From a virus (Duplodnaviria; Heunggongvirae; Uroviricota; Caudoviricetes): a DNA stretch of 46,602 bases. The position numbers were made by a program, and so were the translations under genes. The stretch lies in IMG/VR virus record IMGVR_UViG_2724679140_000012, one strand, 5' to 3'. Of the stretch, positions 1 through 17,376 are shown piece by piece (position 1 is the first letter of the stretch; every line of letters starts with the position of its first letter). Under the pieces are notes generated by a model. That model searched no databases. It was given only the letters and a program-made list of their open reading frames with translations, and had not been told where the DNA came from.

Positions 1-1284
1 TTACTTCTTCGCCTCTGCAACCACTTTACTACCCACGCCGCGGTTATTGTATTCCCACATGCGGTTGTAGTTAGTGTCATTCAGATTGCGCTGTATTTCG
101 TCGTTATCATCTACGCTGCCGGTATTACCCGCAAACGGACGATTAGAGATCACCGCATCGGCCCACGGTTTAGCCGTGTTAAAACCTTCGTTGATGGCGC
201 TATCACGGATCACCACCTGACCGTTGGTATTGGCATCAACATCCAGCGAGCGGCCCAGTTGCGCCACACCATCACCGAAAGCATTGAAACGGCTGTTTAC
301 GGCGAGGAAACCGTAGTAAATGTTGGACAGCGTAGCCGGTGCAAACACATACGCTTCTTGCTGAGTACGTGAGTTCACCACGCGGAATTCGGTGTTATCG
401 AACACCACTGCGCCGCGACCAGAAACGATATCCACATCCCCTTCAATGTAGCTGTTGGTCACCAGCGTACGCGGCTGACGGTTGGTTTCCAGACGGTTCT
501 GCACACCGCTGTTGGTGACAAAGAAGGTGTTCTGACGACCGAGAATGTTAACGTTGTTAATCTGTACCTGGTCACCATCAGTACGCAGTGCCACCGCCGG
601 ATGGTTACCTGCATCTACGCTATCGCCCAGCGTGTTTTCGATGGTCAGATTTTGCAGTTGCAGGCCATTGTTTTGTGACCAGAAGACCGCAGAGCAGAGA
701 ACACCGATACTGTCGCTGCGTTTGCTCTGGCAGCTATCGTACATATACCACGCTGGTTTACCTGGCATATATTTGCCGCGCGGGTTGACGTCGTGACGCC
801 AGTCGGCAGGGCTCATGCCACCATCAAGGGAAAGCCCAATCTTCACATCAATCGGTTTTTCACCTGTACCGTACAGAGTAATTCCACCCGGAGCGGCAGG
901 GACATATACCGTTCCCTGATACTCACCAGGCATCACGGCAATATACTGGCGCTTGTTGGTACGCTTGATAATTGCCGCATCTACCGCCGCCTGAATCGTG
1001 GTATGCGTTACACCTTGAGTGCCCGCTGGGCCGACAACAAAGTCAGGTTGCGCAGGCAGGGTAATCGGGGAAGGATTCCACGCTGCAGCACCTGGTGTCA
1101 GGGATGCAAAATAGTGTTGAGCATCGAAATTCTGCGCTTCTTTTGCCGACAGAATCGGGCGAGAAGAGGTACCAGGCGCGGTTTGATCAGAAGGACGTTG
1201 ATCGGGCGGGGTTGAGCTACAGGCGGTCAGCGTCACGCCAAAAGCCAATGCCAGCGCCAGACGGGAAACTGAAAATGTGTTCAC
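1..1284 (-). CDS. ybhC: Host gene: YbhC-type lipoprotein (pectinesterase-family / acyl-CoA thioesterase), 427 aa
   Basis: Complete 427-aa minus-strand ORF ending at TAA 1-3; N-terminal signal with LTAC lipobox; recognised as the gene that flanks attB-lambda on the gal side in E. coli. Confidence 0.85.
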   Translation of the reverse strand: MNTFSVSRLALALAFGVTLTACSSTPPDQRPSDQTAPGTSSRPILSAKEAQNFDAQHYFASLTPGAAAWNPSPITLPAQPDFVVGPAGTQGVTHTTIQAAVDAAIIKRTNKRQYIAVMPGEYQGTVYVPAAPGGITLYGTGEKPIDVKIGLSLDGGMSPADWRHDVNPRGKYMPGKPAWYMYDSCQSKRSDSIGVLCSAVFWSQNNGLQLQNLTIENTLGDSVDAGNHPAVALRTDGDQVQINNVNILGRQNTFFVTNSGVQNRLETNRQPRTLVTNSYIEGDVDIVSGRGAVVFDNTEFRVVNSRTQQEAYVFAPATLSNIYYGFLAVNSRFNAFGDGVAQLGRSLDVDANTNGQVVIRDSAINEGFNTAKPWADAVISNRPFAGNTGSVDDNDEIQRNLNDTNYNRMWEYNNRGVGSKVVAEAKK

Positions 1285-1330
1285 AGGTTGCTCCGGGCTA
1301 TGAAATAGAAAAATGAATCCGTTGAAGCCT

Positions 1331-1425
1331 GCTTTTTTATACTAAGTTGGCATTATAAAAAAGCATTGCTTATCAATTTGTTGCAACGAACAGGTCACTA
1401 TCAGTCAAAATAAAATCATTATTTG
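1331..1425. other. attL prophage junction: lambda 15-bp core GCTTTTTTATACTAA (1331-1345) followed by the lambda P' arm with arm-type Int sites
   Basis: Core read directly at 1331-1345; flanking B-side sequence CCGTTGAAGCCT and P'-arm sequence GTTGGCATTATAAAAAAGCATTGCTTATCAATTTGTTGCAACGAACAGGTCACTATCAGTCAAAATAAAATCATT match lambda attB/attP as I recall them. Confidence 0.9.
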
Positions 1426-9827: not shown

Positions 9828-9961
9828 AAAGAAGATTTCCAATAATCAGAACAAGTCGGCTCCTGTTTAGTTACGAGCGACATTGCTCCGTGTATTCACT
9901 CGTTGGAATGAATACACAGTGCAGTGTTTATTCTGTTGTTTATGCCAAAAATAAAGGACGA

Positions 9962-10585
9962 TTATGCGACCTCGGAAGGAAGTCCAATCATCTTATTCAA
10001 ATCTTCTACCCGTAAAGCAGGAAGTGCTGCACTTGCTTTATCTGCTTCTTTTGGTAGCAACTCTTTGCTTTCAGGCCAGACCTCAATAAGTCGCTTAACT
10101 GTTGTGACTGAGTTCAAAGCAGCCCATACATTTGATTCGATATCCTTTTTCCTGGCTTCAAGTTTTTGTTGCAATGCGCAGATTTCATCAAACCTTTTTG
10201 TTATTTTGTGTTCTGCGTCAAACATGCATTTATCTTGGTCGGGGGTAGGGAGCAATATATCTTCACCGTTGCCGTCTTTTCCGTATGAATGCCAGCCAAC
10301 CCTTCTTCCTGATACAGTCAGATAAATCGAACTTGAACGGGCATCGCATGAGTAAAATGAACATCCCAGCTTTTCAAGTTCTTCGCTTATAGCCATTAAC
10401 TTGGATGCCAGCTGGTCCACTTCCTCAGTTTTCTTTTTCCCGCCAAACGCAACAACTCTGGCATCAAGTGCAAGCTGGTTCTTTAACTTTGTTACTTCTT
10501 CAAGTTCAGTGAATACCCCGGACTTAATTAAAGCGTTGCGTGCTATTACTTCTTTTATTGTCGTAGTTAAGCGGATTGATGACAT
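9962..10585 (-). CDS. Hypothetical protein, 207 aa
   Basis: ATG at 10585-10583 with GAGAGGA upstream; the track's longer ORF has an N-terminal extension without RBS. Confidence 0.7.
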   Translation of the reverse strand: MSSIRLTTTIKEVIARNALIKSGVFTELEEVTKLKNQLALDARVVAFGGKKKTEEVDQLASKLMAISEELEKLGCSFYSCDARSSSIYLTVSGRRVGWHSYGKDGNGEDILLPTPDQDKCMFDAEHKITKRFDEICALQQKLEARKKDIESNVWAALNSVTTVKRLIEVWPESKELLPKEADKASAALPALRVEDLNKMIGLPSEVA

Positions 10586-13882: not shown

Positions 13883-14044
13883 ATGACAAAACGTCGTAAG
13901 AAATACCAGGAAAAAGAAGAGATTCGACACCCTGATTCACCTGAGGGATTAGTGGTAGCCGCAGCAAATAACAGGACGTTCGCAGAGCGCCTTGTTGGTG
14001 TTTACAGACTAGCCAAAGCAGGAGTGAAACATGGGTGTCGTTAA
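13883..14044 (+). CDS. Possible small protein, 53 aa (MTKRRKKYQEKEEIRHPDSPEG...)
   Basis: ATG at 13883 with CAGGAG upstream; overlaps the 14031 start of the O-like ORF. Confidence 0.4.
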   Translation: MTKRRKKYQEKEEIRHPDSPEGLVVAAANNRTFAERLVGVYRLAKAGVKHGCR

Positions 14045-14921
14045 GTTAGCTGATTACAGGCATAACCCTGTACAACATCAGGAGGCATCCAGTATGGGGT
14101 ATGTCTCTATACACCGCCAGTTTATGGACAGCAGGCTCTATAAGGACTCTCAGGCAGTACATCTTTGGCTTCACTTAATCCTCAAGGCTAATCACGAATC
14201 TACTGTCGTCAATACGGATATCGGGCCGATAACTGTTGATCGCGGTCAGATGATAACTGGACGCCCGTCGCTGGTCAGAGAAACATTCATCCCAGACAAC
14301 AAAGTTCGGAGCTTATTACGGACTTTTGAGTCGAAAGGGATGCTTAATATTTGCTCGATGGGGAAGAAATTTAGCCTGTTTACAATCGTTAAATATGACG
14401 ATTTTCAGGCAAAAAATTGTCCAACGGTTGTCCAACGGTTGTCCAACGCAAACACCAGTAATGGCGCGGCTCTCAGCGGAGATTGTCCAACGGTTGTCCA
14501 ACGGTTGTCCATAAACAATAATATAAATAATATCTCTAATACTGACGTATTAGAGAGTACCGCAGCAGACAAAAAGTCTGACAAGAAAAAACCTTCCGTT
14601 AGCTGTCAGGATGTTGTCGATGCTTACCACGAAATCCTTCCTGAAGCGCCAAAAATCCGCGCACTGAATGACAAGCGTAAAAACCAGATCCGAACGTTCT
14701 GGCGCAAAGCCGGAGTGATAACCCGCCAGCTTGACGGGCATGGGTTCACGATGCAGGACTGGAGAAATTATTTGAGCTACGTAGGCGAAAATTGCCGATG
14801 GATGTTCGAAGAGCGTCCAAACCATCAACGCGGAACCGTCTGGCACAAAAAGGGATTTGATTTCCTGCTTAACGACAATACCTACCTGAAAGTTCGTGAG
14901 GGTGAACACGATGACCGATAA
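14031..14921 (+). CDS. Replication initiator, lambda O / P22 gene-18-like (alternative start at 14094)
   Basis: Contains the origin iterons inside the coding sequence (encoding repeated CPTVVQRLS peptide), as in lambda O; both candidate starts have Shine-Dalgarno sequences. Confidence 0.85.
   Translation: MGVVKLADYRHNPVQHQEASSMGYVSIHRQFMDSRLYKDSQAVHLWLHLILKANHESTVVNTDIGPITVDRGQMITGRPSLVRETFIPDNKVRSLLRTFESKGMLNICSMGKKFSLFTIVKYDDFQAKNCPTVVQRLSNANTSNGAALSGDCPTVVQRLSINNNINNISNTDVLESTAADKKSDKKKPSVSCQDVVDAYHEILPEAPKIRALNDKRKNQIRTFWRKAGVITRQLDGHGFTMQDWRNYLSYVGENCRWMFEERPNHQRGTVWHKKGFDFLLNDNTYLKVREGEHDDR
14417..14556. repeat. Replication origin: two blocks of three TTGTCCAACGG iterons followed by an AT-rich region
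   Basis: Direct repeats at 14417-14449 and 14482-14512, then AAACAATAATATAAATAATATCTCTAATA. Confidence 0.85.
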
Positions 14922-17376
14922 TTTTTATGCGCCGCCCCATAGCATCGAGGCAGAGCAGGCGGTGATTGGTGGATTGCTTCTGGATGATGACAGCAGTGAG
15001 CGCGTCCAGAAAGTTCTGGCGATGCTGAAGCCTGATTCATTTTACAGCCGACCACACAAAATCCTTTTCGAAGAAATAACCTGAATGCACCGGGAGCAAA
15101 AGCCAGTAGATGGCCTGACGCTTTTCGATGAACTGGAGCGTAAATCGTTAACGGCGTCTGTTGGCGGTTTTGCTTATATCGCTGAGATCGCAAAGAACAC
15201 GCCAAGCGCAGCAAACATCGTTGCTTATGCAATGCAGGTTCGCGAAACCGCAATGGAACGCTACGCCATCAACCGCATGACTGAAGCGACGGAATTGCTC
15301 TATTCCCGCAACGGAATGACTGCAACGCAGAAGTACGAAGCTATTCAGGCGATTTTCACGCAACTGACAGACCATGCAAAAACCGGATCGCGTCGCGGCC
15401 TTCGCTCATTTGGTGAGGTCATGGAAGACTGGGTTAGCGACCTTGAGAAGCGATTTGACCCGTCAGGCGAACAACGAGGAATGAGCACAGGGATCCCATC
15501 GCTGGACAGGATGCTGTCACCGAAAGGTCTGGTGAAAGGCTCTCTGTTCGTCATTGGCGCTCGCCCTAAGATGGGGAAAGCGCAACCGCTTAATTCACGC
15601 ATTTTGCTTGCTGATGGTTCATGGACAACATTTCGTGACGTATGTGTTGGAGATTCCCTAGCATCAGTGGATGGACAACCATCATTCGTGTCTGGAGTTT
15701 TTCCTCAAGGGGAGCGAGATATTTACCGAGTTACGTTCTCTGACGGAAGAACCGTTGATTGCGCGGATGATCATTTGTGGGAAATTCATAGTAACCGTAT
15801 TACCGGTGGCGTTGATGTTGTAGACACCTGCCGCCTACGGGACATGATGGAATGCGTTCGCTATCAAAGCCGCATTCATGTTCCTGGTATTAGCGGTGAC
15901 TTCGGATTGCCTGTTGATTTAGGGATTAGCCCATGGCTGTTAGGTGCGTTACTTGGCGATGGAAATCTTGCAGGTACGCCACGAATCAGCATGACGGAAC
16001 CATACATCATTGAGCGAGTAAGATCTGAAGTGGGTGACGATATTGAAGTCAGGCATGTTTCTGGCTGCGATTACTCCCTATCTCACAAGTTTAGCCGCAA
16101 ATTATCTCTTACGCGGGTTATGCAACGGCTTGGTATCTACGGCCGGATGTCAGAGATTAAAATTATCCCGGATATTATTTTTTCTGCTGATAAGCAAACT
16201 CGTATTGATGTTCTATGCGGATTACTTGAAACCGATGGTTGGGTTGAAGGAAATAATGCCCTGCGCTTTAGCTCGGCAAGCAAGTTCCTGTCAGATGGTG
16301 TAAAGCGGCTGGTGCATTCTCTTGGTGGCGTGTGTCGTATGACAACCAAACAGGAGCCGAAATTCAGTTATAAGGGAGAAATGCGCAAAGGTATGGATGC
16401 CCATATTTGCGCAATCAGGTTGCCTGATGAGGTTCTATCACACATAAAATCTCCACGCCTGAAGCAAAAATTCACTGCAAAACGCATCAAAACAAGTGCG
16501 CCTGTTATCACGTCGGTTGAGTATATTGGACGTGAAGAGTGCATTTGCATCATGGTATCCCACGAGAGACATTTGTATGCAACTGACGGATACATTCTAA
16601 CCCACAACACCACGCTATACAGCCAGATGGCAATCAATTGCGCAGTGCATGAGAAAAAGCCCGCTCTGATGTTCAGCCTTGAAATGCCAGGTGATCAGAT
16701 ACTGGAAAAACTGGTAGGGCAGAAGTCTGGTGTTAACCCGAATATTTTTTACCTTCCGGCGACAAATGACGCCGATGACGGCTATCAGGGTGATTACGAT
16801 GGTGACTTCAACAGGGCGATCGAAACAGCCAATCGCTTGAGTGAAATCGACATGCTTTACATCGACGACACGCCGGGATTATCTCTGGCTCAAATCGTCA
16901 GCGAAAGCCGTCGAATCAAGCGAGAAAAAGGATGTGTTGGCATGATTCTGGTCGATTACCTGACACTAATGACCGCTGAGAAGGCCGATCGCAACGACCT
17001 TGCTTACGGCATGATCACCAAAGGACTGAAGAACCTTGCCAAAGAGCTTGATTGCGTTGTTGTGCTTCTGACACAGCTTAACCGCGCACTGGAAAGCCGA
17101 ACCAATAAACGCCCATTACCAAGTGACTCACGAGATACAGGGCAGATTGAACAGGATTGCGATTATTGGGTCGGGATCCATCGTGAAGGCGCTTTTGATG
17201 ACAGTGTTCCACCTGGGGAAACTGAACTAATCCTTCGTCTCAATCGTCATGGCAATACCGGCACGGTGTATTGCATTCAGGCAAATGGCTCTATTTATGA
17301 CACAGACCAACAGTCCGCTGAAATGCGCCGCCGTGAACGCGAGGAACCGCAATCCAAGAAGAAAGGAGGATTCTGA
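14911..17376 (+). CDS. DnaB-family replicative helicase (P22 gene-12-like) containing an intein; reading frame interrupted by in-frame TGA at 15082-15084
   Basis: N-terminal PPHSIEAEQAVIGGLLLDD and VGGFAYIAEIAKNTPSAANI align with E. coli DnaB; Walker A GARPKMGK is split from TTLYSQ by a 343-aa insertion; ORF track shows 14896..15084 and 15085..17376 in the same frame separated by TGA. Confidence 0.85.
15580..16608 (+). other. Intein (343 aa) with LAGLIDADG homing-endonuclease domain inserted in the helicase P-loop
   Basis: Insertion directly after GK of Walker A; ends THN followed by extein Thr; two LAGLIDADG-like motifs (LLGALLGDGNL, LCGLLETDGWV); first residue Ala; Trp in block B (DHLW), Cys in block F (CICIMV), Thr before HN. 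Confidence 0.8.

Follow-up and report, generated by a model that had tools for sequence, protein, structure and literature searches.

The replicative helicase gene of a lambdoid prophage resident in atEc, a mouse-gut commensal strain of Escherichia coli, is interrupted by an in-frame TGA at codon 58. The prophage sequence considered here is a 46,602-nt stretch of DNA, referred to at its full length as the window (IMG/VR record IMGVR_UViG_2724679140_000012), which comes from contig LRBX01000027.1 of assembly GCA_001596865.1; position 1 of the window is contig position 67132, and the window and the contig end together. The most probable explanation (roughly 85%) is that the TGA is a strain-private nonsense mutation (AGA→TGA, R58*) in a prophage that is otherwise intact. 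It is a commonplace lesion, one that would abolish or strongly weaken the function of the gene. Neither programmed recoding nor a purposeful division of the gene is supported: the stop interrupts a domain midway and is not conserved, the ATG beside it has no Shine-Dalgarno (SD) sequence, and no Rfam match, distinctive RNA fold, or promoter-like site accompanies it. A sequence-only reading of the window had listed a nonsense mutation in a prophage replication gene as one of four possibilities, with no choice among them; comparison with other genomes supports this one, since relatives carry a sense codon at the site and the TGA allele is private to one assembly.

The interrupted reading frame and its relatives

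The whole DnaB-like helicase gene extends from 14911 to 17376 on the plus strand and comprises 821 codons, 343 of which belong to an intein. Direct reading of positions 14700-15400, together with translation, places the start at ATG 14911, followed by 57 sense codons (14911-15081), the TGA (opal) codon at 15082-15084, and an ATG at 15085-15087, which is codon 59 of the same frame. These coordinates are exactly those of the sequence-only reading. Beyond the ATG the frame stays open as far as the stop codon at 17374-17376, and the 821 codons thus contain exactly one internal stop. In the list of open reading frames (ORFs), the gene is split into a 62-aa ORF that begins at an upstream GTG and a 763-aa ORF (15085-17376, plus strand; 763 codons and the stop).

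The protein belongs to the DnaB-like "P" type of helicase found in the HK620/HK022/VT2-Sakai group of lambdoid phages. The 57-aa piece matches the Pfam DnaB N-terminal domain (PF00772) over its first half (positions 2-47 of 103, E = 6e-13), and the downstream ORF picks up the same domain again at positions 50-103 (E = 2e-11) before continuing through a linker into the intein-interrupted ATPase domain (DnaB_C, PF03796, E = 2e-53). The arrangement that defines the DnaB family, an N-terminal domain followed by a C-terminal RecA-like ATPase domain, is thus present, with the N-terminal domain divided between the two ORFs; the cut lies at PF00772 position 48-49 of 103 and not at a domain border. When Arg58 is restored and the intein removed, the protein matches E. 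coli DnaB (PDB 6bbm_A) with E = 1.5e-83 by phmmer. In this alignment codon 58 falls opposite an Arg of DnaB (about R74 by manual count), as had been noted earlier. The uninterrupted frame of a functional helicase gene is seen in the relatives and is broken here at codon 58. The helicase is therefore best described as a member of the DnaB family by descent and a pseudogene or hypomorph by state. Outside the intein the gene is 99% identical in nucleotide sequence to the "P" genes of HK620, HK022, and VT2-Sakai, and it shares with them the overlap between O and P and the genomic position; those genes run uninterrupted for 478 codons (821 with the intein), in contrast to the window copy.

The site is well represented in sequence collections. 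At an identity of at least 95%, a 651-nt query around it finds 379 matching records, distributed over 378 of the 5,426 complete E. coli genomes; in the phage collection it finds 113 records, 87 of them at this level. Codon 58 is AGA in every relative read at this position (mEp235, VT2-Sakai, E. coli HS, PCP06173, MS20674, strain 631, and E6), and the ATG for Met59 follows codon 58 in all relatives compared. In a five-way alignment of the window with mEp235, VT2-Sakai, E. coli HS, and PCP06173, T at 15082 (contig position 82213) is found only in the window. Because all of the other sequences carry A, the ancestral codon, as judged from this alignment, is shown to be AGA (Arg), and the change a single A→T transversion at 15082 that leaves A as the base after the new stop (a UGA-A context). 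The relatives thus have a sense codon, but not the CGA or TGG that the sequence-only reading had anticipated. The closest relatives with an intein, E. coli MS20674 and strain 631, have a single uninterrupted 821-codon ORF, and the window helicase is 99.4-99.5% identical to the uninterrupted 821-aa genes of the relatives L005 and L006.

Some of these relatives are known to be functional phages. mEp235, HK620, and HK75 are isolated phages, and the AGA-bearing mEp235 and VT2-Sakai (Sp5) are plaque-forming or inducible. Sp5/VT2-Sakai, which replicates, is packaged, and transfers (PMC2669165), has a helicase gene that is 99.1% identical to that of the window over the 651-nt stretch and carries AGA. 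The occurrence of the same TGA in related intact phages, which had been named as evidence that would tell against a lesion, is not what is found; the functional relatives have AGA. Among the window and six relatives, the helicase gene has 56 variable sites, four of which are private to the window, namely the TGA and three sites near the 3' end. Relative to the six, these three further variants (positions 17217, 17290, and 17316) comprise two synonymous changes and one substitution, A794S. For the 146-base stretch that contains them, the best complete E. coli genomes differ at two positions and none is exact. The helicase lineage is slightly diverged, in a manner that looks like genuine evolution and not noise.

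Several searches were directed at the TGA allele itself. A 68-nt query centred on the stop gives no 100% match among 336 E. coli records, 82 phage records, and one plasmid record. Since megablast with a query of this length cannot place the mismatch, a 30-nt query (15064-15093) was used, in which every 28-mer seed spans the TGA; it finds no match in the 5,426 complete E. coli genomes or in 50,697 phage records, even at E ≤ 10. Nor is an exact 28-mer spanning the TGA found in GTDB species representatives, IMG/VR, or JGI metagenome contigs. In an index of 153 billion genes, a single contig, LRBX01000027.1, encodes the 763-aa product. The identical 57-aa fragment is present on ten further contigs, in all of which the gene runs into the end of the contig. 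Among the loci that were fetched, the sequence extends past codon 57 in five, with "A" or "AG" there, in agreement with AGA; two others stop at the last base of codon 57, and two have no match to a 15-nt anchor, leaving the site unread. The fragment records were consequently rejected as further TGA alleles and are regarded as cut-offs at contig ends. By these searches, the TGA allele is private to one strain or assembly.

Many draft and metagenome contigs (L010, L012, and L014-L018) end within 1-2 bases of helicase codon 57 (window ~15081-15083), and the helicase protein cluster holds many "partial" fragments of 57-70 aa that mimic a truncated gene in protein databases. The breaks at codon 57 probably represent an assembly-graph breakpoint at which co-resident prophage copies diverge, for example, at a G/T polymorphism at window position 15093.

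State of the prophage and expected consequences

The window begins in ybhC, adjoining the λ attachment region (the λ attB neighbourhood, window 1-1400), and continues with the integrase, the immunity and replication region, the nin genes, Q, the lysis genes, and a head and contractile-tail module. To assess integrity, all stop-to-stop ORFs of at least 80 aa from four relatives were compared with the window by tblastn. The integrase, O, KilAC antirepressor, RusA, Q, nin, and lysis genes are full-length, without a stop or frameshift. The same is true of the late genes for the terminase large subunit (506 aa), portal (491 aa), capsid (346 aa), a sheath-like protein (496 aa), the tape measure/transglycosylase (605 aa), and baseplate J (409 aa). 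Other tblastn alignments that contain stops arise from spurious, alternative-frame ORFs of the relatives and were rejected as gene lesions. Among the genes that have relatives, the helicase TGA is the only in-frame stop in a genuine phage gene; the multiple lesions or deletions of essential modules that mark a cryptic or degraded prophage are absent from the window. The lesion would appear to be recent, given that no decay is seen in the remainder of the prophage.

With the TGA in place, most ribosomes would be expected to terminate at codon 58 and to release a 57-aa fragment. A few percent may instead read UGA-A by means of tRNA-Trp, giving an 821-aa precursor with Trp58 that intein splicing would convert into a 478-aa helicase. 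Some ribosomes may also restart at AUG 15085 and so generate a product that lacks residues 1-58, with a length of 763 aa, or 420 aa after splicing. The N-terminal domain of DnaB is needed for helicase activity and for interaction with primase. Because half of this domain would be missing, the restart product is probably inactive as a helicase.

Mutations of this kind are already known, either as classical opal mutations or as the first hit in prophage decay. Nonsense (amber or opal) mutants in phage replication genes include the classical λ Oam and Pam mutants and P22 gene 12 amber mutants. These likewise have an early stop in a replication gene that arises from a single-base change. By analogy with λ Oam/Pam, phage DNA synthesis would be expected to fail or to be severely reduced in a non-suppressing host, with the reservation that opal codons are typically leaky. 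There are also differences. The helicase TGA arose naturally in the resident prophage of a wild commensal, whereas the λ and P22 mutants were obtained by laboratory mutagenesis; in addition, the window helicase is of the DnaB type, like P22 gp12, rather than a helicase loader of the λ P type, and it bears an intein.

The defective prophages among Sp1-Sp18 of E. coli O157 Sakai similarly carry lesions that inactivate essential genes, replication genes among them (PMC2669165). Most of the Sakai prophages have multiple defects, whereas the atEc prophage has one detectable lesion in the window and so looks like the very first step of decay. As a single lesion in an otherwise intact element, it is a clean example of that step. 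Defective Sakai prophages can still be induced, and can be complemented by, or rescued through recombination with, co-resident lambdoid prophages (PMC2669165). Co-resident lambdoid prophages could complement or repair the atEc helicase in the same way. Beyond annotation the mutation matters little: the annotation of the prophage should record a helicase pseudogene (R58*) and a probable impairment of replication, a property that is relevant only to studies of phage release from the mouse commensal atEc.

Two observations concern the prophage as a whole. Its λ-like early region is combined with a late module that specifies a contractile tail and a baseplate (gp47-like). No complete E. coli genome contains a near-identical copy of the entire prophage; at the best-matching place, coverage is 46% for the left 24 kb and 92% for the right.

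Alternatives to a private nonsense mutation

Termination-reinitiation works at overlapping genes or across very short spacers (PMC10666635, PMC6728339), and in four of five E. coli gene pairs it falls by 60-90% or ceases altogether when the SD sequence is removed (PMC6728339). The helicase junction resembles such natural pairs in that stop and start are adjacent (0 nt), a geometry that permits a local restart, and the downstream frame is fully open. Conceivably, then, the locus could be a functional split gene, in which UGA-AUG termination-reinitiation yields 57-aa and 763-aa products that reassemble, or in which the truncated protein works alone. This idea, which the sequence-only reading had raised, is highly improbable. 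Natural coupled pairs are conserved and usually contain an SD inside the upstream gene, whereas the helicase junction is a one-off mutation beside an internal Met codon: the split is present in no relative, the cut falls within the N-terminal domain, and the ATG is the ancestral Met59. Pairing with the anti-SD sequence before ATG 15085 amounts to -1.0 kcal/mol, compared with -6.2 kcal/mol for the true helicase start at 14911 and -3.3 to -8.3 kcal/mol for eight other gene starts in the window; 71.5% of all window ATGs score as well or better. ATG 15085 is a possible, unassisted reinitiation codon that lacks the SD on which most of the pairs mentioned above depend. An evolved split gene was rejected on the combined evidence of the private allele, the mid-domain cut, the lack of an SD, and the ancestral ATG. 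The pairing of TGA and ATG is a modest coincidence and not a designed signal, because the Met59 ATG is present in all relatives and because a stop could arise in the helicase gene through 290 different single-base substitutions, 8 of which (2.8%) would have an ATG next; an arrangement of "stop then ATG" can, it should be cautioned, arise by chance beside an ordinary Met codon. UGA also serves in both selenocysteine insertion and stimulated readthrough, and E. coli has the selenocysteine machinery, which together form the case for programmed recoding at this codon. Such recoding, likewise suggested earlier, deserves next to no weight. Orthologues carry AGA followed by identical downstream sequence, indicating that no recoding signal has been selected; no Rfam family matches in 14700-15500 at E ≤ 1, and the RNA fold of 15060-15160, which includes the stop and the downstream 80 nt, is no better than that of shuffled sequences (z = 0.28). 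Thus, neither a conserved stop among orthologues nor, by Rfam and folding, a downstream stimulatory structure or a selenocysteine insertion sequence element is seen, and programmed readthrough and selenocysteine insertion were rejected. The notion that the mutation creates a promoter was dropped as well, since no promoter-like site lies within 14900-15300.

Two further explanations differ in what they make of the T at 15082. It might be an error of sequencing, assembly, or manual curation, in which case the strain has AGA and an intact helicase. LRBX00000000 is the genome of an "atypical" E. coli (atEc), a mouse-gut commensal, for which 1.72 Gb of Illumina MiSeq reads were obtained for a 5.24 Mb genome; GS Assembler and CLC were used for the assembly, into which PCR-based long reads were afterwards merged through manual curation (Nat Commun 2016, PMC5482719). 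An error is made conceivable by the merging step, by the restriction of the allele to a single draft assembly, and by the many assemblies that break near the site, pointing to a repeat or a concentration of variants at which reads of sister prophages might be combined. However, division of the read total by the genome size gives a depth of about 330x, at which a wrong base in the consensus is improbable; the change is a transversion rather than a homopolymer indel, no other stop or frameshift is found across the ~45 kb of phage genes compared with relatives, and a collapsed repeat would still require T-bearing reads, when no known copy has T. The sequencing error proposed by the sequence-only reading is therefore an unlikely explanation that keeps a small residual weight. 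Somewhat better placed, though still a minority possibility, is a mutation that is real but leaky, such that readthrough of UGA-A supplies enough Trp58 helicase for replication and the prophage is hypomorphic rather than dead. UGA is the leakiest of the stop codons. In K-12 reporters its readthrough is about 2% at 37 °C and 4% at 25 °C (PMC10570021), and UGA followed by A is especially prone to misreading by tRNA-Trp (PMC5289835). Leakiness also accords with the variability of position 58 (Arg in E. coli DnaB, Ser in the 9dls chain) and with the intact state of the remaining prophage genes in the window. On the other side, a hexameric helicase is loaded at many origins in each lytic cycle, and a drop in supply of about 50-fold or more would probably be limiting. 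K-12 has a variant RF2, and readthrough values obtained there may exceed, and thus overestimate, those of wild isolates. Moreover, there is no evidence of selection for the stop, which is private to one strain. A stronger version, in which the opal codon works as a throttle and is tolerated or indeed favoured, with the helicase supply, and through it prophage replication, set by UGA-A readthrough and varying with temperature and cyclic AMP state, is very doubtful. Were it true, readthrough and intein splicing would form two post-transcriptional gates on lytic replication, and the lysogen would rarely make phage yet would keep the other genes of the prophage.

A private nonsense mutation in an otherwise intact prophage thus remains the preferred explanation, against which several points must be set. 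The conclusion depends on an assembled sequence that was merged by manual curation, so that the small chance of a consensus or curation error applies to it directly. The expected phenotype, a prophage that would be replication-null or defective, or else strongly hypomorphic, is itself deduced from sequence, and because Arg58 is not invariant, a Trp58 readthrough product might work. The TGA is not the only rare variant of the gene, and the lesion cannot be dated as the latest change on its private branch. Finally, the right end of the prophage lies beyond the end of the contig (46602, inside the tail-fibre region), and the assessment of integrity covers the window only.

The intein and neighbouring genes

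The helicase gene is also interrupted by an intein of 343 aa (15580-16608, plus strand), inserted between the K and T of the Walker A loop (GARPKMGK|A…THN|TTLYSQ), with boundaries taken from the intein-less mEp235 protein. The Walker A motif (GxxxxGKT/S) reads GARPKMGK before the intein and TT after it; an intact motif would exist only if the intein were spliced out. The intein matches the Pfam families LAGLIDADG_3 and Hom_end_hint. Criteria for class 3 inteins, and the location of mycobacterial DnaB inteins at "site b" in the P-loop, have been described (PMC6195587). As read from the sequence, the helicase intein begins with Ala1 and thus lacks an N-terminal nucleophile. It contains the WCT triplet (Trp of block B in DDHLW, Cys of block F in ECICIMV, and Thr of block G in ILTHN), ends in His-Asn, and is followed by Thr at +1. 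Its phmmer matches in the PDB include the class 3 DnaB inteins 6bs8 and 6rix/6riy and also gp41-1. By these features it is an intein of a known kind, class-3-like and at the P-loop site.

The DnaB inteins of Mycobacterium smegmatis (DnaBi1) and mycobacteriophage Bethlehem (PMC6195587, PMC2807308) share with it the insertion in Walker A, the Ala start, the DxxH-x-W motif, the block F Cys, the T-H-N ending, and Thr at +1. They differ in that the helicase intein has a LAGLIDADG endonuclease domain, whereas M. smegmatis DnaBi1 is a mini-intein, and in that the helicase intein resides in an enterobacterial lambdoid prophage and is known here from sequence alone. Homologues with ~46% identity interrupt another extein, namely the primase/helicase ("toprim domain") protein with which the Stx2a-converting phages (φ24B, Min27, and 49 Stx2a records) replicate, and homologues are also present in 165 mycobacteriophage records. 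Because of this distribution over a different extein and the mycobacteriophages, a single mobile family of inteins is suggested to move between unrelated phage replication proteins.

The intein is widespread. It differs from that of L005 by one silent nucleotide and from that of L006 by none; DNA covering at least 80% of a 1,201-nt intein-spanning query is present in 17 complete E. coli genomes, and a 90%-identity cluster of 449 proteins, some of them from Salmonella, contains the downstream product. That the open 821-aa allele has been kept in this cluster and these genomes gives indirect support to splicing, which in a class 3 intein would pass through a branched intermediate at block F. The sequence-only reading had remarked that the TGA and the intein together mean that two unusual events are needed to make an intact helicase. 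This is literally true, but the comparisons indicate that the two are unrelated, the intein being an ordinary allele that is widespread and is found intact in relatives, the stop a one-off lesion.

In RefSeq, the helicase of each of the three intein-bearing complete E. coli genomes inspected is split into two "incomplete" pseudogene halves, named as N-terminal and C-terminal domain proteins, and the intein is left unannotated (L005, 2412-3080 and 4110-4877; likewise in L006 and L007). The same pair of feature names is found under all 17 complete-genome matches of the intein-spanning query. Because the gene of L005 and L006 is one open 821-codon frame, the annotation in two halves is an artefact and not gene decay. 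The calling of intein-bearing helicases as two pseudogene halves by the NCBI pipeline is thus a practical issue of annotation.

Upstream of the helicase lies a gene for an O-like replication initiator (14031-14921, plus strand, 296 aa in the ORF list), whose 3' end overlaps the helicase start by 11 nt. It aligns over its full length, at 98-99% identity, with a gene annotated as "DNA replication protein" in L005 and "hypothetical protein" in L006. Within the N-terminal region of the helicase gene, the antisense strand contains two matches to a terminator-like hairpin followed by a T-run (15102-15119 and 15198-15210), against 0.3 expected from shuffled sequences; these have short, 5-bp stems and are probably due to chance. 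Farther upstream, in the early left arm between the cIII/kil genes and the N gene, is a gene for a 207-aa protein with a Pfam match to Nmad5 (PF18757), located at window ~9960-10580 (L008 878-1501, minus strand).

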